Origin: a virus
Lineage: Duplodnaviria; Caudoviricetes
Strand: one strand, 5' to 3'
Virus record (IMG/VR): IMGVR_UViG_3300008255_000007
Coordinates: 1 to 64,000 of that record
Length of the DNA: 64,000 nt
Shown here: positions 410-63,309 of the stretch, in pieces
How the letters are laid out: every line of letters starts with the position of its first letter
Position numbering within the stretch: the first letter of the stretch is position 1
Program-made: the position numbers and the translations under genes
Notes under the pieces: model-generated
Seen by the model: the letters and a program-made list of their open reading frames with translations, nothing else
The model's database searches: none
What the model was told of the DNA's origin: nothing

Positions 410-562
410 TTATCTCACTGTACTAAGGTTTAAGTAACTAGTCAAGCCCTCTTCTGAAATCCAGACTTTACGTCCATTTCCCATATCTACCAAATAAGAA
501 GTCTTTCCAAATCCGGTTTCTACTTTATCAATAACTTTACCTAAAAATTCTTTATTTTCCAT
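410..562 (-). CDS. Small hypothetical protein (50 aa, [10 protein letters not shown]...), not in ORF track
   Basis: Hand translation; fills the gap between 564..848 and the pentapeptide gene. Confidence 0.7.
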
Positions 563-563
563 A

Positions 564-848
564 TCATTCTCCTATCAATTCTATTAAATTATCTAAATTG
601 CCTACTTTATATTCACATTCTACTTCATGGTCGCCGCCGTCTTGGTCTGCAGCAAAGCCGCTACCACAAAGCCACCACTCTCCGTCTATTAGCACTGCAT
701 CGCCTTCAAAGCTTTCTATAGGCCCATAAAGGTTATGATTACGGTCGTTAGCTTCTACAGGTACCTCGGCTACGCTAACGTCCTTAATAGTAGGCATGCC
801 GTTTTCTAGTATAGCCTCTAATCCTATTAGTCTATCATCTAGTTTCAT
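564..848 (-). CDS. Hypothetical acidic phage protein
   Basis: ORF track; tightly packed with neighbours. Confidence 0.7.
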   Translation of the reverse strand: MKLDDRLIGLEAILENGMPTIKDVSVAEVPVEANDRNHNLYGPIESFEGDAVLIDGEWWLCGSGFAADQDGGDHEVECEYKVGNLDNLIELIGE

Positions 849-849
849 T

Positions 850-921
850 TTATACTCCCATCATTGTAAAGATTATATAAAAAGTTAATAACATTATTAA
901 GAAGCCTAATCCGTTTAGCAT
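850..921 (-). CDS. Putative 23-aa single-TM peptide (MLNGLGFLIMLLTFYIIFTMMGV)
   Basis: Hand translation; start overlaps upstream stop and its stop abuts the next ATG. Confidence 0.45.
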   Translation of the reverse strand: MLNGLGFLIMLLTFYIIFTMMGV

Positions 922-1061
922 AAATCATCCTCATATTCCTCTAAAAAGTCCTCATAGTAGCCGTCTAGTTCTTCGTCGTTAAGCGTAGGAAACTTATCCT
1001 CTAGTTCTTTATAGATAGCGTCCATATCTACTAGGTCGTTAAACTCAGTTACATTTTTCAT
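915..1061 (-). CDS. Small very acidic protein (48 aa, MKNVTEFNDL...EEYEDDLC)
   Basis: Hand translation; D/E-rich, packed between neighbours. Confidence 0.7.
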   Translation of the reverse strand: MKNVTEFNDLVDMDAIYKELEDKFPTLNDEELDGYYEDFLEEYEDDLC

Positions 1062-1062
1062 T

Positions 1063-1710
1063 TTATCTACAACCTTTCACTTGTTTTTCAATTACAATCC
1101 AGCCTGAATCTCCCATCATATTAACAGGTCGATCAAGAATAAAACCTATCATCGTACTTAAACAAGAGCTTCTATCAAGGAGTAAATTTACGTATTTTAA
1201 AGCGGCTTTTTCTGTTTTAAATCTTAGGTAGCTAAACTCAGTGCCCTTTCCTTGTTGCGCTGCTACTGTTCCATATTAAGGATTTTCAGTAATAACTAAA
1301 GCTTCTTTAGCATTAAATTGTTCTGCAATTTCGTCAAAACCTCCATTAATGGCATTAGCTAATACATGGTCTACTGGAATATTTCCCATATGGCTATTAC
1401 AATCGTATATTAGGTCTTTGATAGTAGGCTTTTCGTTATCGTCTAATTCATTAAAGCTTTTATGTGGTTTAGCGGCCATAATGCCAAAGCTTACTACAAA
1501 AGGAGCACTCTTATATTCTCTCTCACCAGTAGCCTGATACATATCTAAAATCTCAATATACAGTCCAAAGTTACGTCTTTTTTCATCGTCTAGTACAAAC
1601 ATCCAATCAGGATTAGATGCAAAGTAATGTCCCTCTGTAATCTCGTCTAGTACTGTTAGATCTAGACTATATGTTTTAAATTCAATGTTATTTAATTTAG
1701 CTTCTTTCAT
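1063..1710 (-). pseudogene. Hypothetical protein interrupted by an in-frame TAA at 1276-1278 (144 aa, stop, then 70 more open codons)
   Basis: Frame of ORF 1276..1710 stays open after its stop down to TAA at 1063-1065, two bases before the next ATG. Confidence 0.55.
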
Positions 1711-1725
1711 TTTATATCCTTTCTT

Positions 1726-1914
1726 TTAAGCGGCGGCGTCTTCACTATCAGCTCTTAGAGCTTTACAGTCATATACCAAACATCCTAGTATAGTATCAAA
1801 TCTTTTTAGCAGGTCTTGGTCTGCTTTTTCTAAGCCTACATCTTGAATAAGCTCAAATAACCTACTTAATGTTTTAGCACTCATTATTACGTTTTCTTCT
1901 GCTTTAGTTTTCAT
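1726..1914 (-). CDS. Hypothetical protein (starts MKTKAEE like the pentapeptide gene)
   Basis: ORF track; AAAGGA RBS upstream. Confidence 0.7.
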   Translation of the reverse strand: MKTKAEENVIMSAKTLSRLFELIQDVGLEKADQDLLKRFDTILGCLVYDCKALRADSEDAAA

Positions 1915-1961
1915 AATATTATTATCCTTTATACTTTTCTATTAAACAAGTGACGTTTAGG

Positions 1962-2348
1962 TTAACTTTTATACCTTTCTATAGCTCCACAAAGGCATCC
2001 TCTAGCCATTATAGTATTCATAGGGCAGTTACAGCTTTTAGGCTGTACAGGTTCAGCTACTGAGCATATCGGTGGGCTTTTAAAAGGTTCATTAGGTGTA
2101 TAGTCAAAAAGTCCTGTAGATGCCTTAGTAATATGTACTGAGTCAGTATACTGAATATAGTTACCTTTATGCATGTAGGCCTCAAAGTCGTTACGCTCTT
2201 TAATATCTTTAATAAACCGCTGGTTTAAAGCTTTAACACTATAAGCAACGTAATGTATATCCGCTCTTTCTACTGTTATAACCGAATCATAGTTTTTAGT
2301 TCCGTTTCTATTCATTTTTATAAACTTATCACCTTTTTTAATATCCAT
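1962..2348 (-). CDS. Hypothetical protein with C-terminal CxC...CxC motif
   Basis: ORF track. Confidence 0.65.
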   Translation of the reverse strand: MDIKKGDKFIKMNRNGTKNYDSVITVERADIHYVAYSVKALNQRFIKDIKERNDFEAYMHKGNYIQYTDSVHITKASTGLFDYTPNEPFKSPPICSVAEPVQPKSCNCPMNTIMARGCLCGAIERYKS

Positions 2349-2350
2349 GA

Positions 2351-2659
2351 TTATTCCTGGTTAGCCTTTCTTAAAGCATTTTTAGCTAAACATAAATGTT
2401 CAAAGCTTAAATCAGTGCATTCATCTACTATAATTTCTAGAGCTTCCAGTAAATCAGGAGCGGCTACTATTAAATCAGCTAAATGATTAGAAAAATCATA
2501 AGTTAAAGCGTTTTTATTATGTTTTATTTGAATATGCAGTCCTCTATCATCATAAATATGAGTACTGTTAGGAGTATCTAATCTTCTAACGTCAAGTCCT
2601 ATAGAATTATCATCTATATCTACCGTATCTGTATTTTTATTTATATTCCAGTATTTCAT
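2351..2659 (-). CDS. Hypothetical phage protein (C-terminal LIVAAPDLLEALE helix common in phage early proteins)
   Basis: ORF track; AAAGGA RBS. Confidence 0.75.
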   Translation of the reverse strand: MKYWNINKNTDTVDIDDNSIGLDVRRLDTPNSTHIYDDRGLHIQIKHNKNALTYDFSNHLADLIVAAPDLLEALEIIVDECTDLSFEHLCLAKNALRKANQE

Positions 2660-2675
2660 CTTATATCCTTTCTTT

Positions 2676-3539
2676 TTATGTATAAAAATTAATACCAGTA
2701 ACCATAGTAAGCCTTTTAGCTTGTTCTTTATTAGGCTTTATTTCTAAAGTCTTAAATGGTACATTGAGTTTATTTAATTTAAGTTCTAGTCCTGAAAGTT
2801 TAGACTCTTTAAAATTGATACTTTTAAAATCTACTAATCTAACTCTAACATCAACGCCTTGACTTTTAAGCTTCTCTATAGCATGCATTCTACGTCCTAT
2901 ACTAGGCACTCCTGGTTCTAGAGCCCTAGCCATTTTCTCACTACCTCTAATAGGCATAGTAATTATAACAATGTGCCCTTTTAATAGTTCTATATAGTCA
3001 TCCGTAGCTACTAGGTCGCTTTTAGTATAGATTTTTAGTTTAACATTATAAGAGTTAGCTAGTTTTAACGTAGCCTTAGCTACTCCATACTTGCGATCCA
3101 TCCACATAAAAGCATCGCTATTATGCCCTAATCTAAGCGTCTTTCCTTTAGATTTACTAAGTTTAGCATGTATACTAGTTATATTTACAGGAAAAGGCAT
3201 AGGCCTATTCCAATTATTTAAGTTATTAAGCATAGAACTACAAGCGCTACAATTAGCTATGCAGCCTCTTGAATAAGCCTCTAAGGTGTTTTGTTTTGTA
3301 TTAAAATATCCTACTACTCCACTTATAGGCTGCATATCTCCAAACCTAGCGGCTATTTTATCGTAAATGCTTAAATCAAAGTTAATCTTTTCAATTGAAC
3401 TAATAGTTTCTTTAGAACTACTTAGCCTTAGTTTTTTTTCAATAGGCCCCATTAAATCAAATTCAGGTTTTAATTGACTATTAGGCCTGATTTGAGTTTT
3501 AACAGGCTTTTTAGTAAAGATATCTATAACATTACTCAT
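2676..3539 (-). CDS. Radical SAM protein, spore photoproduct lyase-like (SplB/Rv2578c-type)
   Basis: CxxxCxxC (CIANCSAC), IYTKS and LEPGVPSIGRRMHAIEKL segments typical of SPL-like radical SAM enzymes. Confidence 0.75.
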   Translation of the reverse strand: MSNVIDIFTKKPVKTQIRPNSQLKPEFDLMGPIEKKLRLSSSKETISSIEKINFDLSIYDKIAARFGDMQPISGVVGYFNTKQNTLEAYSRGCIANCSACSSMLNNLNNWNRPMPFPVNITSIHAKLSKSKGKTLRLGHNSDAFMWMDRKYGVAKATLKLANSYNVKLKIYTKSDLVATDDYIELLKGHIVIITMPIRGSEKMARALEPGVPSIGRRMHAIEKLKSQGVDVRVRLVDFKSINFKESKLSGLELKLNKLNVPFKTLEIKPNKEQAKRLTMVTGINFYT

Positions 3540-3554
3540 AATATTGTCCCCTTT

Positions 3555-4133
3555 TTATAAAGTATTAGATACTTGTACAATTGCAGGTTCTTGTACTGTT
3601 AAGTTTAGGCCTTTGACTCCGCTACCTTGGTAGTAATGCACTCTAAGCTCATGTACACCTTGAGTCAAGTTTACAGTTTTAGTCTTAAGTTGCATGGCAT
3701 GGGCGCCACCGTTATTAATAATTCTAGTCCCATTTAGATATAATTCGCTACCATCGTCCGATTCGAGACTAAATACATGGTTTCCATTAGTCTTTACTTC
3801 AAAGCTAAGGCTACACCTTAAGGCGAAGTTACTAACTACGTCAAAAGCATCTGTATTTAGAAAGGCTTGAAAAGGCATAGAGCTATTAGACTCAACACCT
3901 AGACTCATGGAGTCTAGTTCTATCTCTAAGTTACCCTTTACTTGATGCGCGGTAGGTAGGGTAGTCTTATTCCAGGTAGTAAAGACTTGACATATTACTG
4001 GAGAAGTTTCTACTGGTACTTCTTTAATAACCTCTACGAATTCTGTATGGTATTCAGTATTAGTTACATGTTTAGTACGTTTTCCACAAGCTACTACGAT
4101 TAGCAAGGTTATTAATATAATTAAGTTTTTCAT
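3555..4133 (-). CDS. Lipoprotein with PA14 domain
   Basis: Hydrophobic signal ending VVAC (lipobox-like); SDDGSELYLNG...GVHELRVHYYQG PA14 signature. Confidence 0.8.
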   Translation of the reverse strand: MKNLIILITLLIVVACGKRTKHVTNTEYHTEFVEVIKEVPVETSPVICQVFTTWNKTTLPTAHQVKGNLEIELDSMSLGVESNSSMPFQAFLNTDAFDVVSNFALRCSLSFEVKTNGNHVFSLESDDGSELYLNGTRIINNGGAHAMQLKTKTVNLTQGVHELRVHYYQGSGVKGLNLTVQEPAIVQVSNTL

Positions 4134-4161
4134 GTTATTATCCCTCTTTCTGTTTAAGTTA

Positions 4162-4509
4162 TTAGTCTAGTATAGGTGATATATCGCCGCGTTCGTTGCA
4201 AAATATAATCCAATTAAAAACGCCTTGTTTCTCTTGATTATCCTTAATAGCTTTTAAAGCATCGTCGTATTCTGTAAAGTTACCTAGGGATTGACCACTA
4301 GACTCCGCGTAGTATCCCCCTCTAGTCCAATCCTGAATAACGTCGTATTCGCCTATACAGTAAAGAATAGCATCGTTATTAAAATCGCATTCAACAAAAT
4401 CATGTTCTCTAAGGATATCAGCTAAGGCTTCTTTAAGATCTTCAAAGGCCTGATCTATTCGTTCTAATTCTAGCTTTCTAGTATCTTTTAGTCTTTCAAG
4501 TGTTCTCAT
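4162..4509 (-). CDS. Hypothetical phage protein
   Basis: ORF track; GGAG RBS. Confidence 0.75.
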   Translation of the reverse strand: MRTLERLKDTRKLELERIDQAFEDLKEALADILREHDFVECDFNNDAILYCIGEYDVIQDWTRGGYYAESSGQSLGNFTEYDDALKAIKDNQEKQGVFNWIIFCNERGDISPILD

Positions 4510-4610
4510 TATAAATCTCCAGTCTTAACGTTAATATATCTAGATTCCCATTTAGGGCAGTCTGTATTGCCTATAAACTCCATGCCTAAGGCCTTAGCTC
4601 TAGTTAAGTT

Positions 4611-4781
4611 TTAATTAATTTCCTCTACCCAAAATTCACTCATCATATCATCGAAGTCTTCTTCGGGTAGATGGTCAAATTCTTCGTATAGAGCGCCCCA
4701 TGCGTCTTCAAAGTCTTCGAATTCACCATAATACGGAGTCTTGTCGTTACCAGCCCAATCTTTAATTATGTACTTAGTCAT
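4611..4781 (-). CDS. Small acidic hypothetical protein (likely start MTKYIIKDW at 4781)
   Basis: AAAGGGG RBS before ATG 4781; first gene downstream of a sigma54-type promoter. Confidence 0.7.
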   Translation of the reverse strand: MTKYIIKDWAGNDKTPYYGEFEDFEDAWGALYEEFDHLPEEDFDDMMSEFWVEEIN

Positions 4782-4826
4782 AGTATATATCCCCTTTGGT
4801 TTAATGTTACGGTCTACCAATATAGC

Positions 4827-4842
4827 TGCAACAGGTGTGCCA
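4827..4842 (-). promoter_or_regulatory. Sigma54 (RpoN) -24/-12 promoter, leftward
   Basis: Minus strand TGGCACACCTGTTGCA; GG and GC separated by exactly 10 nt. Confidence 0.7.
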
Positions 4843-5244
4843 AAAGGTAGTGTTCGGCCTAAGTGACTAGTTACCTTAGAGAAGCGGGGTATTTATAAAG
4901 ATAGTGTTAATAGGTATAGGTGTAGAACTAATAAACGATAGTATAAAAGAATACTAATAAAAGGTATAAAGTATAATAAATATATAATACTTAGAAGTGA
5001 TGTAGAACTATTAGACAGTATATTGACAGTGTATAAAAGCTATACGATAGTACCCAATAAGGTATAGCATAGAGGATATAGGTTATAATAGGTCTAGATA
5101 GGGTATAGTATACGGTTTAGTATTGAGTATAAACTATAAACTAAGGCTATAGGCTGATATATAAGACGCTTGAGGCAGGTTATAGCCTGATATAAGTTAT
5201 ATCAAGGGTTTAGGTACAGGATAAGCCTGCAGGAATTAGATAGG

Positions 5245-5284
5245 AATAGGTGAGAATAGGGGATAATAGGTGAGAATAGGGGAT
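5245..5284. repeat. Perfect 20-bp tandem duplication AATAGGTGAGAATAGGGGAT x2
   Basis: Direct inspection. Confidence 0.9.
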
Positions 5285-5353
5285 AATTGAACATGTTCTA
5301 CCAATCCACTCCCAATCCACAAAATAAAACACATACCCCATACAGGAGGTTAT

Positions 5354-5400
5354 CTTAACACGATCTTAACTTGACTAGTTACCTAAATACCTGTTATTCT
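5354..5400 (+). promoter_or_regulatory. Sigma70-type promoter immediately preceded by a CTTAAC-N5-CTTAAC box
   Basis: TTGACT at 5371-5376, TATTCT at 5395-5400, box at 5354-5370. Confidence 0.45.
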
Positions 5401-5564
5401 ACATCAAATGGTCTTTTTTTATATATAAAGTGATTCTCATTCTATACATTGTCTATTATAAGCTATGCTTGGAGGGATTGTTAAGGTTCGGTTAAGGCAG
5501 ATTTAGGTCGCTACTACCATTATACCATAGAAGCCTTAAAAAACCTAATTAAGATTTGGTTAAG

Positions 5565-5585
5565 AAAATGCCTCATCCTTGAGGC
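5565..5585 (-). terminator. Intrinsic terminator for the leftward 6308-5595 genes
   Basis: Minus strand GCCTCA-agga-TGAGGC followed by ATTTT. Confidence 0.55.
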
Positions 5586-5594
5586 TAGGGGGGA

Positions 5595-5726
5595 TTATTT
5601 AATAAGCTCTAAGGCCTTAGCATTATGCCTATGCAGCTTATAGTGTAGATCGTTATATACTCCATAACCGATCATAATAGTACCTAGGACAATTAATAGG
5701 ATACCTGTTAACTTAATAGTGCTCAT
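5595..5726 (-). CDS. Small single-TM protein (43 aa, MSTIKLTGILLIVLGTIMIGYG...), not in ORF track
   Basis: Hand translation; GAGG RBS. Confidence 0.7.
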   Translation of the reverse strand: MSTIKLTGILLIVLGTIMIGYGVYNDLHYKLHRHNAKALELIK

Positions 5727-5736
5727 GTTATACCTC

Positions 5737-5991
5737 TTAAAACTCAAAGCCTAGTGCTTTTGCTAGACTAGGGTTGGCTTGTAAAAAATAGGCCATATCT
5801 AATATTTCCTGGTCTTCAGGTCTATACTCAGTATCTACTATACTATTAATGATATCATCTGTATTCCGCAGATCCTCAACCGTTAAGGCATTGAAATTAT
5901 CCTCTATCCAGCCTCTTAGTATAACCGATACGGCGGCTATATTGCCATAATGTATTGCTCTAGGTCCTTTGTTATGTATGTACTCTTTCAT
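5737..5991 (-). CDS. Hypothetical protein (likely start MKEYIH at 5991)
   Basis: GAGGGG RBS before ATG 5991. Confidence 0.7.
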   Translation of the reverse strand: MKEYIHNKGPRAIHYGNIAAVSVILRGWIEDNFNALTVEDLRNTDDIINSIVDTEYRPEDQEILDMAYFLQANPSLAKALGFEF

Positions 5992-6056
5992 CTTATATAC
6001 CCCTCTATGTTTATATAGTACTCCGATATGCAGTACCAAATCAAATCAAGTTACTG

Positions 6057-6308
6057 TTAGGCTACTAGCTTTAAACTTCTATACATGTGGAATGCCTTGA
6101 CTCTATTAGGTGCGCTCATAAGCGTTACCAGGCTACCATCGGGTCTAATAGCCTCAATGATATACCTAGAGTCACCACTATACCTATTAGGTGATCTATG
6201 CAGATTTACCATAATGCCATTGTTTAGTATCTTAGTTATCGTTCTTTTTGTACGTATCATACTATATAGGCTGCAACTCCCATGCCACTGGTAACTATAT
6301 GTAATCAT
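6057..6308 (-). CDS. Hypothetical basic protein
   Basis: ORF track. Confidence 0.6.
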   Translation of the reverse strand: MITYSYQWHGSCSLYSMIRTKRTITKILNNGIMVNLHRSPNRYSGDSRYIIEAIRPDGSLVTLMSAPNRVKAFHMYRSLKLVA

Positions 6309-6522
6309 TGGTATGTTAAGATTATGTTATGTAGAACTACTAGACGATTGTGCATAAGTCTATGATATTATTACTGTAGAACTTATATACACTGTATAAA
6401 AGATATATACTAGGGGGTTGCTCTATTATATAAAAGTCAATACCCCCTTTATTAAATTTGTGTTAAGGTTATAATTGTGGTATAGTTATTGCAGGATGTT
6501 TAGGATTGTTAAGATATTGTTA

Positions 6523-6538
6523 TGGCATAGAAATTGCT
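6523..6538 (+). promoter_or_regulatory. Sigma54 -24/-12 promoter, rightward
   Basis: TGGCATAGAAATTGCT with correct GG-N10-GC spacing. Confidence 0.6.
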
Positions 6539-6541
6539 ATA

Positions 6542-6557
6542 TGCAAAAGTCATGCCA
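6542..6557 (-). promoter_or_regulatory. Sigma54 -24/-12 promoter, leftward
   Basis: Minus strand TGGCATGACTTTTGCA with correct GG-N10-GC spacing. Confidence 0.65.
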
Positions 6558-6789
6558 ACTTATGTTAAGAATGTGTTAAGGGGAGGGGGTATCCGCCACT
6601 TGAGTGTCTGTGACAAGGCCTTTAGTGTCTCTAACACTCCCATGAGTTTCTATAGACTAGTTACCAGCAGTTAACTCTTTAATTTTACAGGAATCCCATA
6701 AATCTCAAGTCCATGATCTATATCAATTTTAGGATAATTATCAAGAAATAACCTTAATTTAATTTTAAAGTCTGTGTAGACTAGTTACT

Positions 6790-6984
6790 TTATAAAGAGG
6801 GGCTATCATCGTCTATGAGATACTCGATGTAGGTTACGTCTTTATTTAATATGTCTAATAGCTCCCAGGTATCCATATTAGCTACTGCGTGGTTTATGAG
6901 GATCTCTTGTTGATACTTTAATACTTGGGTTACTTTATCCCTGGCTTCTTTTGGGTTTATAGTTAAGGTAGTGATTATACTCAT
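6790..6984 (-). CDS. Hypothetical protein
   Basis: ORF track; ATGA overlap with upstream gene. Confidence 0.7.
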   Translation of the reverse strand: MSIITTLTINPKEARDKVTQVLKYQQEILINHAVANMDTWELLDILNKDVTYIEYLIDDDSPSL

Positions 6985-7244
6985 TTTAAAACTCCGTCTC
7001 TAGGCTTAATCTTATAATATAATACTATGGCTACAAATACTAAGTTAGCTAAGTAATTAACTATTAAAGGGATATGTCCTTTAGGTACTACGTAGATGAT
7101 TGAACAGATCTCTCCTATAAGCCATAGGATCAAAAGACTCCAAGTCACGCCTACTGAATGTCCCTGCTTGTAGGATAGCCACGCCTGTGGAGCGCCGCAT
7201 AGAGCAAAACAGATAGAACCTATCCAGCCTATAGTTTCTATCAT
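6981..7244 (-). CDS. PQ-loop / SemiSWEET-like 3-TM transporter (likely start MIETIGW at 7244)
   Basis: Three hydrophobic helices with APQ after TM1; ATGA overlap with upstream stop. Confidence 0.8.
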   Translation of the reverse strand: MIETIGWIGSICFALCGAPQAWLSYKQGHSVGVTWSLLILWLIGEICSIIYVVPKGHIPLIVNYLANLVFVAIVLYYKIKPRDGVLK

Positions 7245-8644: not shown

Positions 8645-9318
8645 TTACGTTCTCCTGTAAGCGATTCTACCACTTCAGGAAAGTTAAGGCAATCTAGCTC
8701 CAATCCGTAGTCTACTATAGCTTTATCGTAGGCTAGAGCTGCCTTATAGTCACTATCATACCTGCCTAGGTGTATCTTTTGTCCTTGTATATTGATTAAG
8801 GCTCTGTAGCGGCCTGTAGCCTCGTCAAAAGAGACTCCAGCATATCCTGTATGGTTTTTACGAGATCGTCCACTAGAGGCTCTCCTAGAGGCCCACAGCA
8901 CGTTGTCTGGAGTATAGCCTAGCATAGTGTTTTTTCTAGCTAGTATATAATTATCCGGTCTTTCGCCCATATCTCGTAGGAAATTTTTGAATGATTTTAG
9001 CCACTTTGAATGTATAGGAATTCCTTTTTCTTTGCTCTTACATTTCATCTGAATCCAAGACTTATAAGTTTCAGTTCCTCTGTTATCTATAATGCAAGCT
9101 CCGTGTTTAGTGCTAGCACAACCTTTACAGGTTAAATAAGTTTTAAAGTCTTGAAATCTTTGAGTCTTGGTAACTCCACAAGAACATTGCCCTACCCAAA
9201 GGGCTTCTTTCTTTACACCATTTTTTAGTCTATATCCACTAAATTTTAGTATGGTCCAACCACCTACTTTATGACCTACTCGATCCTTAGTCCGAGGTCC
9301 TAACTTAGTCTCTGCCAT
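8641..9318 (-). CDS. HNH-like plus AP2-domain protein (homing endonuclease-derived, nuclease motif degenerate)
   Basis: FKNFLRDMGERP...YTPDNVLWA HNH-like core; GVSFDEATGRYRA...HLGRY...AALAYD AP2 domain. Confidence 0.75.
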   Translation of the reverse strand: MAETKLGPRTKDRVGHKVGGWTILKFSGYRLKNGVKKEALWVGQCSCGVTKTQRFQDFKTYLTCKGCASTKHGACIIDNRGTETYKSWIQMKCKSKEKGIPIHSKWLKSFKNFLRDMGERPDNYILARKNTMLGYTPDNVLWASRRASSGRSRKNHTGYAGVSFDEATGRYRALINIQGQKIHLGRYDSDYKAALAYDKAIVDYGLELDCLNFPEVVESLTGERK

Positions 9319-12069: not shown

Positions 12070-12436
12070 TAGTCTTCATCCTTTCATACTCTTCTGGAGA
12101 TAGTGTAAGTATTTTTAAATCCTCTGGGGGGTTATCTAGTAGCGATAGTACCTCTCTTGCTGACTCAATTCTATTATCTCTATTAAACCCTTTAGCTACT
12201 ACAGTTAGGTGTAGAAACTGACTATCAAATAATACTAAACCATTGAATCTAGAAAACAGTCTATTATAATAGAACATTTGAGGTTCTATATAAGTAGACA
12301 TAGGAAGTACTACTTTCTCTACAGTAATTCCTCCTGGAGTACATTCAAAATTCATCTCCGAATCTATAGGCTCAATATCATCTAAGTTTTCTTCTTTTTT
12401 AAAAATGCTTAAAACTTTATTTAAAAGCTTTCTCAC
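12029..12436 (-). CDS. Hypothetical protein
   Basis: ORF track. Confidence 0.7.
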   Translation of the reverse strand: MRKLLNKVLSIFKKEENLDDIEPIDSEMNFECTPGGITVEKVVLPMSTYIEPQMFYYNRLFSRFNGLVLFDSQFLHLTVVAKGFNRDNRIESAREVLSLLDNPPEDLKILTLSPEEYERMKTNGLPINGFSNPEK

Positions 12437-12696
12437 TAATTGCTTCCTTTTAAATTAAGCACTGCTTTACTTCCAAAATGCTCAAGTGCTTTAGTATCAT
12501 AGGCAGCCGCAGCTAGCTCTTCAGTATCGTGATATCCTAGTTGAACTAACTTATTCTCTATTTTAATATAAGCTCTCCACTGCTTACTCTTCTTATTCTT
12601 ACAAAAACTAACACCTTTATAAGTAGAAGACGTATTCTTTCTTACTTTCGGCTTTAAGCTCATAGTTAAAGATCTTTTATTATTAGCTACACTCAT
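12436..12696 (-). CDS. Stand-alone AP2-domain DNA-binding protein
   Basis: SSTYKGVSF...QWRAYI...LGYHDTEELAAAAYDTKALEHFG. Confidence 0.85.
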   Translation of the reverse strand: MSVANNKRSLTMSLKPKVRKNTSSTYKGVSFCKNKKSKQWRAYIKIENKLVQLGYHDTEELAAAAYDTKALEHFGSKAVLNLKGSN

Positions 12697-45689: not shown

Positions 45690-47767
45690 TGAAACTTAGT
45701 GAGCTTAATCCAGAAGAGTATCAAGTAGAAGAGTCTACTGAAGAGCAAAAGCCTTTACGTCTAAGTGAAGTATCTGTTGACGATTATCAAGTAGAGGATA
45801 TGGAACAGCCTGTTGAAGAGGCCCTAGTAGAAGCTTCTGAACAAGTTCCTGAATTCACTAAACTAGAATCTGCAGGACTGGGAGCAGCTCAAGGACTATC
45901 ATTAGGTTTTGCAGATGAGGCTGAAGGTTTTACTAGAGCTTTAGCTAATCTAGACCTAGATGGTTATAAAAAATATAGAGACATAGCAAGAGAGAGATAT
46001 ACAAAAGCTGGAGAAGTTAATCCTTATAGCTTTGCTGCTGGAGAATTAGGAGGAGGTCTACTACTACCTATACCAGGAGCAGGAGCCGCTAAAGCTACTT
46101 CTTTATTAGGAAAACTAGGAACTACTGCTGCTAAAGGGGCTGCTATTGGAGCTGGATATGGAGCTGGTTATTCTGAAAAAGAAGGACTAGAGTCTCTTGA
46201 GGATGCTGCAATAGGAGGAGCTTTAGGGGGAGTATTAGGCGGAGGTTTAGGAGCTAGCTCGGCTGCTAAAGCGGCACAAGCTACAGGAATTCCTAAAACA
46301 TTAGCTAAAGGAACTACAATGGCTACAGGAATAGGAACTGCAGGATTGTTAGGATCACAATTAGCAGATTCAGATGCATCTCGATTAGATAAAGCTAGAG
46401 CTATGATTCCAGCAGTAGCTGCCGTACCAGCTCTAGCAGGTACATCACTTAGAGGCTTAGGAAAACTATTAGCAGGCTCTAAGCCTGTAGATAAAGGAGC
46501 AGCTTTAGTAGATAGAGGATTTGATATATTCTCACAAAAAGGTTTAGATAAGGCCTATGCTCAATTAAGAGGAGCTTCTGAGGAAGTAGGAGGAGTCCTT
46601 AAAAGCGCTTTAAATGACGTAGGAGAGCGTTTACAGGCCGCCGCAGTAGCTGCAGAGGAAAAAGGCGTTAGAATTCAACCTGATGACATAGCGGCTGTTG
46701 TAGACGACGCTATTACTAGGAACGAAAGCCTACCTCCAGGATTTAAAAAAGAAGTAAGTCGTAAAATAATGGAGTCTCTATACGATGAACTACCAGAGCA
46801 ATATACTAAAACTCAAAAAACAGGACCTAAAGGAGAGAAAGTAGAACTATCAGCTAAAGGTAAGAAATTAGAAGATCTTCCTGAGTTAGAGACTTTAGAA
46901 GGTGCAAGAGAAGTTCCAGTATCTTCTAAGATAGCAAGAGATTTAGAAGCTTCAGGAGTAGATCCAGTTACTGTTGAAAAGCTAAGCTTAGAAACTCCAG
47001 GAGTATTAAGAAGAGATATAACTCCTGTAGAATTAAAAGAGCTTAGAACTAAAGTAAGACAGCTTAGAGATGCTACTACTACAGATTCTGAAAAGTATAC
47101 AGCATTAGATACTCTATATAGAAAAATAACAGAAGAGATTAAATCAGAGGTTCCAGGATTCGATGAACCCAGTGCTCTTTATAGACAAGGTATCGAAGCT
47201 CAAGACGTAGCAGGAATTGATCCTAGCAACAGATTTGCTAAGAAATTAAGTTCAGACGAAATAAAGAAAGTAAACCAATACTTAAAGGAGTATGCAATCT
47301 CTCCAGAAGCTGCTCCTTATGAGGTTTCTGCATTCCTAGAGAAAACTTTAGGAAAAGAAAGAGCTAAGCAGTTACTTGGAGATAAAGCTGGAGCAGTAGA
47401 AGATGTATCATATATTTCTAATCTATTAAGACAAGAAGAGCAAGCTAAGGGTGCTTTAGGCATAGCAGGAGATATCTCTCAACTATCTGGATTACGTGGT
47501 TATTTAAGGCCAGATATCTTAACTAGGACTGGGGTAAAAATAGGAGTAAAAGGTCCTCAATTTATAGCTAATATTGTAGATAAATTAGACGCCTTAAAAG
47601 CAGCCACTACATGGGCAAACAATAAAGGTTACAGTAAGATAGCTAATACGCTTAAGAATATGAATCAACAAGATTCCAAACAAAGAGCCATTACTTTATA
47701 TCTTTTAAATGCAGATCCTCAATACCGTCAACAACTTAAAGAGATGGAAGAGGAACTTGGAGAGTAA
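45689..47767 (+). CDS. Large ejection protein with Gly/Ala-rich membrane-like segments
   Basis: 692 aa, last gene of ejection cluster. Confidence 0.65.
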   Translation: MKLSELNPEEYQVEESTEEQKPLRLSEVSVDDYQVEDMEQPVEEALVEASEQVPEFTKLESAGLGAAQGLSLGFADEAEGFTRALANLDLDGYKKYRDIARERYTKAGEVNPYSFAAGELGGGLLLPIPGAGAAKATSLLGKLGTTAAKGAAIGAGYGAGYSEKEGLESLEDAAIGGALGGVLGGGLGASSAAKAAQATGIPKTLAKGTTMATGIGTAGLLGSQLADSDASRLDKARAMIPAVAAVPALAGTSLRGLGKLLAGSKPVDKGAALVDRGFDIFSQKGLDKAYAQLRGASEEVGGVLKSALNDVGERLQAAAVAAEEKGVRIQPDDIAAVVDDAITRNESLPPGFKKEVSRKIMESLYDELPEQYTKTQKTGPKGEKVELSAKGKKLEDLPELETLEGAREVPVSSKIARDLEASGVDPVTVEKLSLETPGVLRRDITPVELKELRTKVRQLRDATTTDSEKYTALDTLYRKITEEIKSEVPGFDEPSALYRQGIEAQDVAGIDPSNRFAKKLSSDEIKKVNQYLKEYAISPEAAPYEVSAFLEKTLGKERAKQLLGDKAGAVEDVSYISNLLRQEEQAKGALGIAGDISQLSGLRGYLRPDILTRTGVKIGVKGPQFIANIVDKLDALKAATTWANNKGYSKIANTLKNMNQQDSKQRAITLYLLNADPQYRQQLKEMEEELGE

Positions 47768-60169: not shown

Positions 60170-61180
60170 TTAAAATTCTCCGTCTACGATATTAGCAAAG
60201 TTAGGTCTAATTAAAGAAGCTACTTTAGAATTTAGCTGCTTATATATAAGTTTAGAATCTTTCTTATCTAAAGCATCTAACTCTTCAGATTTATCTTTTC
60301 TAAAGTCTTCAATAACATCTTTATTCATAAGTCCCATAAGCTTTCCAAAGTCCTTATCAGTTACTACTCCTATTTTAGATAGAACATTTCTTAGCCTATT
60401 CTCTATTATATATGAAGCTCCTTCATCTATCAAGCTTTTTATATTATCAGGAAGCTCAGGCTTAGGAGCTTTAGGTTTATGTTCTTTTTCAGTGAATTTC
60501 TCATTTTTATTCTTTATAATTACTCTAGTACCGTCGTAGACGAATAAAGGAGTAATAGGTTTAATGATAGTACCTTCACATGTGTTATCCTCAAGCTCGG
60601 GCAATCCTAGCCTAACAGGGATCATAGTGTTAAAAGTATTAGAATGTTCCAAGCACTCATCAAGAGTCCCACTATACAAAGTTTCGCAGAAAGGTATTCC
60701 ATTATTATATAAGAAGCCATTAACATCCTGCACTGAAAGTAAACGTCCGTCTACTACAATATCAAAGCCTATAAAATCTTGCTCTGGATTATAAAATACA
60801 CCTTTTTGAACAGAAGAGTCTCCAGAGGCTTCTACATCTTTATGCGGATAATGTCCTCCATATAGTTCTCCATATACAACTACTGTAGTATCTTCAATAG
60901 GTCTATGAAAAATACCACAAATATTACTATGCAAGTCGCGTAATCCTTTTTCATACTTACTTAGTACTTTTTTATAATTAAAGAACTTCTCTTCTTCTTC
61001 AATGAATCCGGAACGCTTAGCCACTTTTATAGAGTTTTCATCAATCCAAAAGCTTAAATTAGCACCATGTACTTTCTCTTGTACTATATAAGTCTGAGAG
61101 TCGTATCCAGACTCTTTTATTTTGTTTATAAATTTAGTTCTATATGAGTTTTCTATTGAACTGTACTTTTTAAATTCCAT
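60170..61180 (-). CDS. rnl2: RNA ligase 2 family
   Basis: KYSSIEN, motif I EKVHGAN, GELYG, FIGFDI, EGTIIKP, IKNKNEKF, NRLRNVLSKIG C-domain. Confidence 0.92.
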   Translation of the reverse strand: MEFKKYSSIENSYRTKFINKIKESGYDSQTYIVQEKVHGANLSFWIDENSIKVAKRSGFIEEEEKFFNYKKVLSKYEKGLRDLHSNICGIFHRPIEDTTVVVYGELYGGHYPHKDVEASGDSSVQKGVFYNPEQDFIGFDIVVDGRLLSVQDVNGFLYNNGIPFCETLYSGTLDECLEHSNTFNTMIPVRLGLPELEDNTCEGTIIKPITPLFVYDGTRVIIKNKNEKFTEKEHKPKAPKPELPDNIKSLIDEGASYIIENRLRNVLSKIGVVTDKDFGKLMGLMNKDVIEDFRKDKSEELDALDKKDSKLIYKQLNSKVASLIRPNFANIVDGEF

Positions 61181-62897
61181 TAGTAGCTCCTATTACATTT
61201 GATTTAGGTCTTATAGTTTTCATAACTAATTTATCTAAGTTATCAAACTTTCTATATAGTACAGGCCATATAGCCGCCGCACAAAGACCGTTTATCTGCT
61301 TGGCTTTTAACCCTAGTATCTTTTTAAACTCTTCAGAGCCTACGCTGACTTCAGGGTTATCGCACTTAACTCTATCAATTACTTCTGATGCTCTAAGGAG
61401 TAATACTTGAAAAGTGTCTTGGTAGAGATCCTCTAGTTGTCTAGTAAGCTCATCAGCCTCTTTTCTAAATTCTTCAGGAAGTTGTGTTAGATAGTCTATC
61501 TTAACTTTACCATTCTCCATAGACTCATAGAAGGATAAAGGACTCATTTGAGAAATCATCCTGTGGATTCTGCAGTACTCTGCTCCTTTTATCTTAACCC
61601 TAAGTCCTGATTGGAATCTAACTACGAAGCCTTCTTTATCTTTAGGTAGGGTCTTTTGTAAGGCTACCATCTCACCAATAGTATAATTATACTCTTTTAC
61701 TAAAGGCATACCTGAAGTCTTAGAAATAGTAAGTAGCTCGTCTCTAGAGCACTCCTGCTCTGTGACTAAGTTATTAGCAGCTAGTAAGACCAACTCTTCT
61801 CTATTTCCATAATTAGCTACTATTTTATTATCAGGATAGATAATCTCAGCCATAAGAGTAGTAGTTTTAGGTATACTAGACATATCATACTTTTTAAGAA
61901 TCTCTAATCCTTTAACAGCCTGCTCAGAACTAAAAGCCCCACGAGTAGCTACTCTCCACTCATTCTTATAGTTATAAATAATACCAAGACTTCCATCCAT
62001 CTTTTCAGTGACTACGTAAGGTTCGTCTGGCAGATTACTTAGACTAGTCTCAGACATTTCCCCTAAATTAAAAAACTTGGACATAGCACACGCTACTAAC
62101 TTACCAGTAGACTTTTCAAAGATAATACCTCTACTTATTCTAGTAATCTCATTCCAAGCTCTTTCAAATGTGCACTGATCTGTATAGTTGTATAGTACTA
62201 AATCTAAATCATCACTAACTACTCTTCTTACATTCTTAGACTTTACTTCATTCTCAAATGGCATTAAAGTAAGACTAACATCGGAGCTATATTTATTAGT
62301 AAGTCTAGTAGGTATAAAATATTCTCCAGAGTTTTTAAGCTCTAGTATATCGTCTTCACTAAGAAGTTTAAGATCTGCATCGAAACACACGTCTATCATA
62401 TTTCTTTTTTTACGATAATGTCCATGTAAATGTCCGTGAAGATAAAAAGAGTTAGGATTATTAACTGCCCTATATTCTAAGAACCTATTATCCTCTTCTA
62501 TGCAAGGAGGTAAGTGAGTCATATAAACAGAGCTTCCATCCTTAAGAGTAAGAATAGTATCTGTAAATACATCCTTCCATCCAGCGTCTAAGTATTTATT
62601 TCTTTGTTTAGCTAGTTGATTTTGGTCCTTATGGAAAGTCTTAAATCCAGCATCATGATTACCCAGAATTAAATATTTAGTACCATTTAGTTTATTGACT
62701 AGATAAGAGTCAAACACTTTAGATTTACTTATACTAAAATCTCCTAAGAAAAAGACTTTATCATCAACAGCTACTTGAGAGTTCCACTGAGATATAATAG
62801 CTTCATTCATCTCAGCTACATCATTATAAGGGCGGTTACAAAACTGTATAATGTTCTTATGGTGAAAGTGTAAATCTGACGTAAACCATCTAGCCAT
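61170..62897 (-). CDS. Fusion: calcineurin-like metallophosphoesterase plus RNA ligase 1 family (likely start MARWF at 62897)
   Basis: SDLH, LGDF, GNHD, HGHLH then EKMDGSLG, MAEII, EGFVVRF, RVKIK. Confidence 0.9.
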   Translation of the reverse strand: MARWFTSDLHFHHKNIIQFCNRPYNDVAEMNEAIISQWNSQVAVDDKVFFLGDFSISKSKVFDSYLVNKLNGTKYLILGNHDAGFKTFHKDQNQLAKQRNKYLDAGWKDVFTDTILTLKDGSSVYMTHLPPCIEEDNRFLEYRAVNNPNSFYLHGHLHGHYRKKRNMIDVCFDADLKLLSEDDILELKNSGEYFIPTRLTNKYSSDVSLTLMPFENEVKSKNVRRVVSDDLDLVLYNYTDQCTFERAWNEITRISRGIIFEKSTGKLVACAMSKFFNLGEMSETSLSNLPDEPYVVTEKMDGSLGIIYNYKNEWRVATRGAFSSEQAVKGLEILKKYDMSSIPKTTTLMAEIIYPDNKIVANYGNREELVLLAANNLVTEQECSRDELLTISKTSGMPLVKEYNYTIGEMVALQKTLPKDKEGFVVRFQSGLRVKIKGAEYCRIHRMISQMSPLSFYESMENGKVKIDYLTQLPEEFRKEADELTRQLEDLYQDTFQVLLLRASEVIDRVKCDNPEVSVGSEEFKKILGLKAKQINGLCAAAIWPVLYRKFDNLDKLVMKTIRPKSNVIGATNGI

Positions 62898-63309
62898 TAT
62901 AAACCTCGTATATATCATACTCTATTCTAGTTACAGGCTCATAATTTTCTTCATAGAAATCTAGAATCTTATTGGCTAGGGCTTCATCATTAGCAGCTAC
63001 GGTAGGATGGTTATATCTACTAACTACCCTCTCTAGACAAGTAGCTCTAGGAGTTTTAAATTCTATAATGTGGATTGAGTACCCAGCTTCTCTAGCAGGT
63101 ACGATATAACGTGACCTTTGGATACTATTAAAGTTCATACGATCAATTACTATTAATTCTTCTCCAGAGTCTAGAGCTTCCTTAAATGCCTTACGATGTC
63201 CTTTAGATCCTAGCTCATCTTGATTAATTCTAGTATAGTTAGAGTAGTGTTTACAAGATGTAGATTTACCAGCCCCAATAGGTCCTACAAGGACAACTAG
63301 TGTTTTCAT
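62890..63309 (-). CDS. Polynucleotide kinase-like P-loop kinase
   Basis: GPIGAGKST, RINQDEL, VIDRMN, CLERVVSR. Confidence 0.88.
   Translation of the reverse strand: MKTLVVLVGPIGAGKSTSCKHYSNYTRINQDELGSKGHRKAFKEALDSGEELIVIDRMNFNSIQRSRYIVPAREAGYSIHIIEFKTPRATCLERVVSRYNHPTVAANDEALANKILDFYEENYEPVTRIEYDIYEVYNG

Follow-up and report, generated by a model that had tools for sequence, protein, structure and literature searches.

A cluster of sigma-54-type boxes in an aquifer phage as candidate promoters for the host's sigma-54 RNA polymerase

Which RNA polymerase would read a tight cluster of sigma-54-type promoter boxes in a phage that encodes neither sigma-54 nor its activator? The question is raised by the virus record IMGVR_UViG_3300008255_000007 of IMG/VR, 84,152 bp long and of ~35% GC, of which the first 64 kb are hereafter the window. 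The first-pass annotation had reported three exact boxes, at 4827-4842 (minus strand), 6523-6538 (plus) and 6542-6557 (minus), with the last two 3 bp apart, and all three are present at these positions. The count of three was too low, as the cluster contains four exact boxes and one near-site, those at 6272-6287 (minus) and 6478-6493 (plus) having been overlooked. The reading that we favour, and hold to be probable while well short of certain, is that the host's sigma-54 RNA polymerase uses all five boxes as promoters. The boxes are given below, with transcription starts (+1) computed by setting the C of the GC element at -12.

4827-4842, minus strand: P1, sigma-54-type box TGGCACACCTGTTGCA, exact match; predicted +1 at ~4816
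6272-6287, minus strand: P2, sigma-54-type box TGGCATGGGAGTTGCA, exact match; predicted +1 at ~6261
6478-6493, plus strand: P5, near-consensus box TGGTATAGTTATTGCA (TGGTAT-N5-TTGCA), 9.5/11 with GG-N10-GC kept; predicted +1 at ~6504
6523-6538, plus strand: P3, rightward half of a head-to-head pair, TGGCATAGAAATTGCT, exact match; predicted +1 at ~6549
6542-6557, minus strand: P4, leftward half of the same pair, TGGCATGACTTTTGCA, exact match; predicted +1 at ~6531

The exact motif TGGCAY-N5-TTGCW occurs four times in the 84,152 bp, always inside 4827-6557 and nowhere else in the genome. Dinucleotide-preserving shuffles gave an expectation of 0.07 exact matches per window, and four or more were not seen in any of 100 shuffles. 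The next-best match outside the cluster (46903-46918, 10/11) is intragenic and antisense. All five boxes are located in non-coding DNA or at the 5' edge of a gene and point at open reading frames (ORFs), in agreement with the earlier view of them as non-random, full-consensus sigma-54-type elements that are intergenic and directed at genes.

The genes towards which the boxes point form two leftward sets and one small rightward ORF:

410-4781, minus strand: leftward operon headed by P1, continuing across the assembly junction
5595-6260, minus strand: cassette of three genes that follows P2 and P4, with no family matches
5570-5585, minus strand: intrinsic-terminator-like hairpin with a T-run, closing the cassette
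6552-6674, plus strand: putative small rightward ORF downstream of P3, of 40 amino acids (aa) from ATG 6552 or 24 aa from TTG 6600

P1 ends 45 nucleotides (nt) ahead of the ATG at 4781, which has the ribosome-binding site AAAGGGGA, and two terminator-like hairpins are found upstream of P1 (5585-5570 and 5350-5335, minus strand). No strong sigma-70 promoter match serving the P1 operon was found. The operon encodes, in this order, proteins of 56 and 115 aa, one with a PA14 domain (3555-4133), and a radical-SAM-like protein of 287 aa with an intact CxxxCxxC motif (2676-3539, minus strand), followed by more small genes. The cassette consists of two ORFs, of 67 aa (6057-6260) and 84 aa (5737-5991), and of a membrane peptide of 43 aa (5595-5726); searches of its proteins against Pfam, PHROGs, NCBIfam, and a protein atlas turned up no usable match. 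The predicted +1 of P2 (~6261) adjoins ATG 6260 of the 67-aa ORF, which could plausibly be translated from a leaderless mRNA, because this phage places ATGs in the same leaderless manner at its sigma-70 promoters. At six stringent promoters of that type (TTGACA-17/18-TATAAT), the ATG of a long ORF always lies 6-7 nt past the -10 box, and no long-ORF ATG is found at any other gap of 1-30 nt, which indicates that leaderless mRNAs are systematic in this phage. Finally, P5 and P3 point rightward to the putative ORF of 24-40 aa and would run antisense to where the upstream operon ends; the alternative start of the ORF, TTG 6600, is preceded by the ribosome-binding site GGGGAGGGGG. The six stringent promoters are found at:

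Window 24083 (plus), 31693 (minus), 49509 (minus), and 63956 (minus); genome 67161 (minus) and 67191 (plus): stringent leaderless sigma-70 promoters

The arrangement at P1 recurs in a second phage. A homologue of the radical-SAM-like protein, 51% identical, is encoded on a contig of 38 kb from another phage, L224 (and likewise on L225), and L224 has one further small gene in common with the P1 operon. In the 20 kb of L224 that were examined, only two boxes match at 10/11 or better; both lie in the 615-bp gap before the homologous operon and are directed towards it. One of the two, TGGCACGTGTTCTGCA, ends 45 nt ahead of the operon's first ATG, exactly as P1 does. The conservation in related phages that had been proposed as a check could be assessed for P1 and is observed there, with two boxes before the homologous operon in L224/L225. 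An extended motif of P1 and the L224 box, GCAGC-N5-TTGGT, was tried as the mark of a promoter family and rejected, as the 18 IMG/VR matches listed were mostly one coding sequence; none of the 18 was near a homologue of the operon. Longer homologues of the radical-SAM-like protein (~470 aa; L229, L230, and L231) are found in bacterial defence islands beside restriction-modification, WYL, and GmrSD genes, and these have no such boxes. In the Pseudomonas aeruginosa phage YuA, gp12 is annotated as a 'DNA repair photolyase', and its pairwise similarity to the radical-SAM-like protein is not significant.

Candidate enhancers are present upstream of P1 and P2:

4921-4929 and 5001-5009, plus strand: two TGTAGAACT boxes, a candidate enhancer (upstream activating sequence, UAS) that covers -105 to -113 as well as -185 to -193 relative to P1
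6330-6338 and 6375-6383, plus strand: two TGTAGAACT boxes, a candidate shared enhancer between leftward P2 and rightward P5/P3

Four of the five copies of TGTAGAACT in the genome are thus upstream of P1 or P2 at enhancer-like distances. The second group (6330-6383) spans -69 to -122 from P2, with the two boxes at -69 and -114, and -121 to -219 from P5/P3. In L224, seven CTGTAG/CTACAG repeats (8737-8921) are found between its two sigma-54-type boxes; they have a TGTAG core in common with TGTAGAACT, a core too short for claiming kinship.

The closed complex of sigma-54 holoenzyme opens only through an AAA+ enhancer-binding ATPase. The phage genome encodes no such activator (PF00158) and no sigma-54 (PF04552), which makes a host factor the simplest supplier, and the earlier proposal that the activator comes from the host agrees with this. 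The AAA ATPase of the phage (75064-76059) was considered as an activator and rejected, being of the classic FtsH/CDC48 type instead. As a closed complex needs an activator and the phage encodes neither protein, the target genes would most likely be silent until a host activator is active, and the two leftward gene sets probably depend on it. We infer that host sigma-54 would bind the boxes, start transcription at the predicted positions, and respond to an enhancer under host control. A host AAA+ activator would bind the four TGTAGAACT boxes, candidate sites 70-190 bp upstream, and open the promoters. P1 would then drive the leftward operon from ATG 4781 with the radical-SAM enzyme and the PA14-domain protein, and P2, possibly reinforced by P4, would drive the self-contained cassette 6260-5595 as far as its intrinsic terminator, while P5 and P3 would read rightward into the small ORF. 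P3/P4 may form a compact two-way promoter: with 3 bp between its -12 elements, it should have room for a single polymerase at any one time, and judged by this geometry the pair could act as a mutually exclusive switch. The simplest reading, that of host sigma-54 promoters, agrees with where P1 and P2 lie, with the recurrence seen in L224, with the boxes that resemble enhancers, and with the precedent of phage YuA. A phage that uses such promoters ties some of its genes to a signalling pathway of its host.

The first-pass annotation had the boxes driving an early region and the first phage genes, yet the gene sets that they head are just two, both internal to a leftward arm of ~19 kb. The claim is unsupported because leftward genes upstream of them carry sigma-70-type promoters:

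10582-10554 (a perfect match), 13325-13296, 8420-8392, and 7808-7779, minus strand: sigma-70-type promoter matches upstream of leftward genes

Is the head-to-head pair an accident of this genome? IMG/VR and a bacterial collection were scanned for it; the counts from these scans are lower bounds, absolute densities are not comparable, and genes in the other viral loci were called crudely, as the longest ORFs. The pair recurs in hundreds of viral contigs that are unrelated, and its pattern with the window's spacing is present in more than 119 IMG/VR contigs of 33-66% GC. When the gap was left free (0-30 bp), gaps of 1, 2, 3, 4, 5, and 6 bp were found in 6, 31, 17, 16, 22, and 4 contigs among the IMG/VR matches listed, that is, 96 contig-gap counts against 35 for the 25 other gaps (0 and 7-30). 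In the sample of bacterial genomes, the gap distribution was flat, and 28 of the 122 matches listed were true hairpins with fully complementary spacers. The spacers of the viral pairs listed agree as complements at 1.41 of 5 positions, which is near chance and argues that the pairs are protein sites and not hairpins; here, too, the spacers of P3/P4 (AGAAA and GACTT) are not complementary. Among the low-GC loci listed, half of the pairs are intergenic against 24% non-coding sequence, and 17 of the 35 pairs with two flanking genes lie between divergent genes against a background of 15.5%. The gap preference, the enrichment between divergent genes, and the non-complementary spacers support the view that the pair is a selected architecture and no accident. 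In this phage, the right-hand partner of P3/P4 is only the putative ORF of 24-40 aa.

The sequence of the half-sites bears on the identity of the reader. Barrios and colleagues reportedly described an extended sigma-54 consensus in 1999, and the positions left unspecified in our pattern follow it across the 421 viral half-sites listed: position 7 is G in 62% and A in 35% (purine in 97%), and position -1 is T in 60%. Found in contigs that range over 33-66% GC, this fit speaks for a single conserved reader. The loci of at most 50% GC among those listed carry 225 additional single boxes. A general rule in which an ATG inside the opposite box serves as a leaderless start was tried and dropped, as ORFs of at least 40 codons begin at that position in 21% of cases, compared with 30% among ATGs of the background.

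Several observations weigh against the boxes being host-read promoters. No obvious gene lies immediately downstream of P4 or P5, and the ORF at 6057-6260 is not among the genes of the public gene callers, although one other pipeline did call the 67-aa ORF from ATG 6260. A canonical dyad-symmetric enhancer was not found, and the TGTAGAACT boxes share a single orientation. In the other viral loci, roughly one in two boxes, paired and single alike, lies inside an ORF as judged by the crude caller, and the same calls give the single boxes a weak co-orientation with downstream genes (64 vs 47). Finally, some viral contigs in IMG/VR carry dense pair arrays that resemble binding arrays more than promoters, namely three 37-bp pairs with a 47-bp period (L131, L135, L140, L145, L149, and L152) or pairs 43 bp apart (L033, L040, L082, and L083).

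These arrays, which are odd for promoters and packed more densely than promoters would require, are among the grounds for a rival reading in which the boxes, or at least the pair, bind sigma-54 holoenzyme without firing, as decoys or roadblocks. Closed complexes of sigma-54 without an activator are stable and silent, and replicating phage DNA carrying such sites could soak up scarce host sigma-54 and blunt host responses, or insulate neighbouring units. P4 and P5, lacking a direct downstream gene, would be at ease in such a scheme, and so would the absence of an activator not only from this phage but also from others: in the 50 pair-bearing viral records checked, of which 19 have a completeness of 90% or more, neither a sigma-54 DNA-binding domain nor a canonical activator is encoded, with only two marginal P-loop-only matches to the activator family. 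Yet silent binding does not account for P1 and its L224 counterpart, which precede, at a distance typical of promoters, an operon that has no alternative promoter, nor for the enrichment of pairs between divergent genes, and it leaves the enhancer-like TGTAGAACT boxes unexplained. We therefore regard decoys or roadblocks as a rather unlikely account of the cluster. A broader version, equally doubtful, is that tight head-to-head boxes are a widespread and so far undescribed viral element that either fires in two directions by means of a phage factor or sequesters sigma-54 and so disarms host responses; if the latter were true, it is the sigma-54-dependent stress and repair responses of the host that the pairs would disarm.

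It could also be speculated that a phage-encoded protein helps to read the boxes, either as a DNA-binding protein or factor of the same specificity or as a factor that replaces the AAA+ activator. The boxes are abundant (the 225 additional single boxes included) in the face of the missing canonical activator in pair-bearing records, and this phage has many orphan small proteins and a stand-alone AP2-domain protein (12436-12696). Moreover, a second repeated motif, RTTAAG-N5-GTTAWG, is found around the boxes and can be taken as the sign of a second regulator:

6315-6331, 6508-6524, and 6564-6580, plus strand: RTTAAG-N5-GTTAWG direct-repeat pairs flanking or overlapping the boxes
5354-5370 (minus strand), 5480-5496, and 5548-5564: further RTTAAG-N5-GTTAWG pairs

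All six pairs have an 11-bp spacing and lie in 5354-6580, with none elsewhere in the 84 kb, and two of them flank P3/P4. This argues for candidate sites of a second regulator, and the layout suggests a binder of the winged-helix or response-regulator type; the AP2-domain protein is a possible candidate for the binder. The pairs were also tried as -35 substitutes for sigma-70 and rejected, as their distance to -10-like hexamers varies between 15 and 24 nt and only 5484-5455 is convincing. Against a phage-encoded reader, no protein family is common to most of the 180 pair-bearing loci listed, the largest, the terminase, being present in 44. The shared extended consensus in phages of 33-66% GC favours a conserved host factor, and the AAA protein of this phage (75064-76059) is not of the activator type. 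A phage-encoded reader is accordingly judged unlikely.

The terminase is also the commonest neighbour of the pair in the wider survey: the gene for its large subunit lies within 4 kb in those 44 of the 180 loci listed (e.g., L013), and 31 of the 44 also contain a DUF5681 small protein. In these terminase-adjoining phages, the pair may lie at the head of the packaging operon. That the matches arise by chance, or as the by-product of another palindromic element (such as a hairpin, terminator, or packaging site), could draw on this proximity and on the true hairpins that match the pattern in bacterial genomes, but it is highly improbable given that no shuffle in 100 reached four matches, that the spacers are not complementary in viral pairs or here, that P1 and P2 are not palindromic, and that the terminase gene of this phage is 11 kb from the boxes.

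Host sigma-54 promoters thus remain the favoured reading, and the phage that carries them can be outlined as follows. Its plus strand encodes terminase, portal, and tail genes, and the genome further specifies a DNA polymerase of family A, a DnaB-like helicase, RecA, and an RNA-repair set:

Window 60170-62918 and genome 79413-80450, minus strand: RNA-repair set (Rnl2-type ligase, phosphoesterase-Rnl1 fusion, and RlaP-family nucleotidyltransferase)

The RNA-repair set suggests a host that attacks tRNA. A search of the phage for tRNA genes found none, and the region 4500-7000 gave no RNA family match in Rfam. The leftward arm, ~19 kb of small orphan genes, runs from ~13.3 kb through the assembly junction to ~78.5 kb. 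The 54-bp terminal repeat of the record is an assembly overlap, and a 219-aa gene crosses the junction (window 1/genome 84152) in the independent contig L226, so the start of the window is not a genome end. No cultured phage was matched by megablast, and IMG/VR searched with the radical-SAM protein and the terminase gave no relatives; the best cultured match is the terminase of a Silvanigrella phage (29% identity), whose genome has no cluster of sigma-54-type boxes. All 18 of 18 runs containing the stretch are aquifer DNA metagenomes, several of them with the same strain, and the four runs compared over 4500-7000 carry that strain with two changes only (6219 and 6239). Further copies of this phage, at 99.98% identity, tell nothing about the conservation of the boxes. 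A host-like HAD phosphatase has matches of ~55% identity that are spread over unrelated phyla, and it therefore gives no pointer to the host.

Two further repeats were observed in the genome. The 9-mer ACTAGTTAC, mostly as ACTAGTTACTT, is present in 19 copies against ~0.6 expected, on both strands and in both genic and intergenic DNA, and might serve an enzyme of modification or nicking as its recognition site. ATAGG repeats that resemble iterons, with a 10-bp period and with ~2.5 copies of ATAGGTGAGAATAGGGGATA among them, are found within a 750-bp non-coding gap and may mark a replication origin or intrinsically bent DNA.

Window 434, 4866, 5374, 6656, 6780, 13311, 29574, 40482, 57907, and 63390: example positions of ACTAGTTAC
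5078-5285: iteron-like ATAGG repeats

How does this phage compare with known sigma-54 systems? To our knowledge, YuA is the only phage documented as sigma-54-dependent, and its sigma-54-dependent promoters were reportedly described by Ceyssens and colleagues in 2008. The development of YuA is reported to be strictly dependent on host sigma-54 (PMC5053324), and mapping of transcript start sites recovered one sigma-54-like promoter (PMC10914365); the entry strategy that the first-pass annotation called unusual for a phage is thus rare but has a precedent. Like YuA, this phage is a lytic tailed phage without an RNA polymerase of its own that has host sigma-70-type promoters and, here as candidates, -24/-12 promoters, and neither of the two encodes sigma-54 or an activator. 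They are unrelated, with a GC content of 64% in YuA and 35% here. YuA (NC_010116.1) has three annotated -24/-12 promoter fragments before or within structural genes (scaffold, gp57, and gp68), none of which reaches 9/11 consensus positions in our scan, whereas four boxes of this phage are exact. Moreover, the boxes of this phage are, unlike those of YuA, clustered in one control region of a small-gene arm and include a head-to-head pair.

Compared with the classical enhancer-dependent promoters (glnAp2/NtrC, nifH/NifA, and pspA/PspF), the boxes are alike in the GG-N10-GC spacing within the TGGCAC-N5-TTGCA consensus, in the repeated boxes 70-190 bp upstream, and in the implied need for an AAA+ activator. 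Text searches of a paper library found no described pair of facing sigma-54 promoters with -12 elements 3 bp apart. This phage differs from the classical promoters in that two of its candidate promoters face each other at this distance, in that no activator gene is present in cis, and in that the candidate upstream boxes are direct repeats and not dyads. Set beside these systems, the window offers a clean, full-consensus example with defined target genes, a candidate enhancer, and a module that recurs in a second phage.

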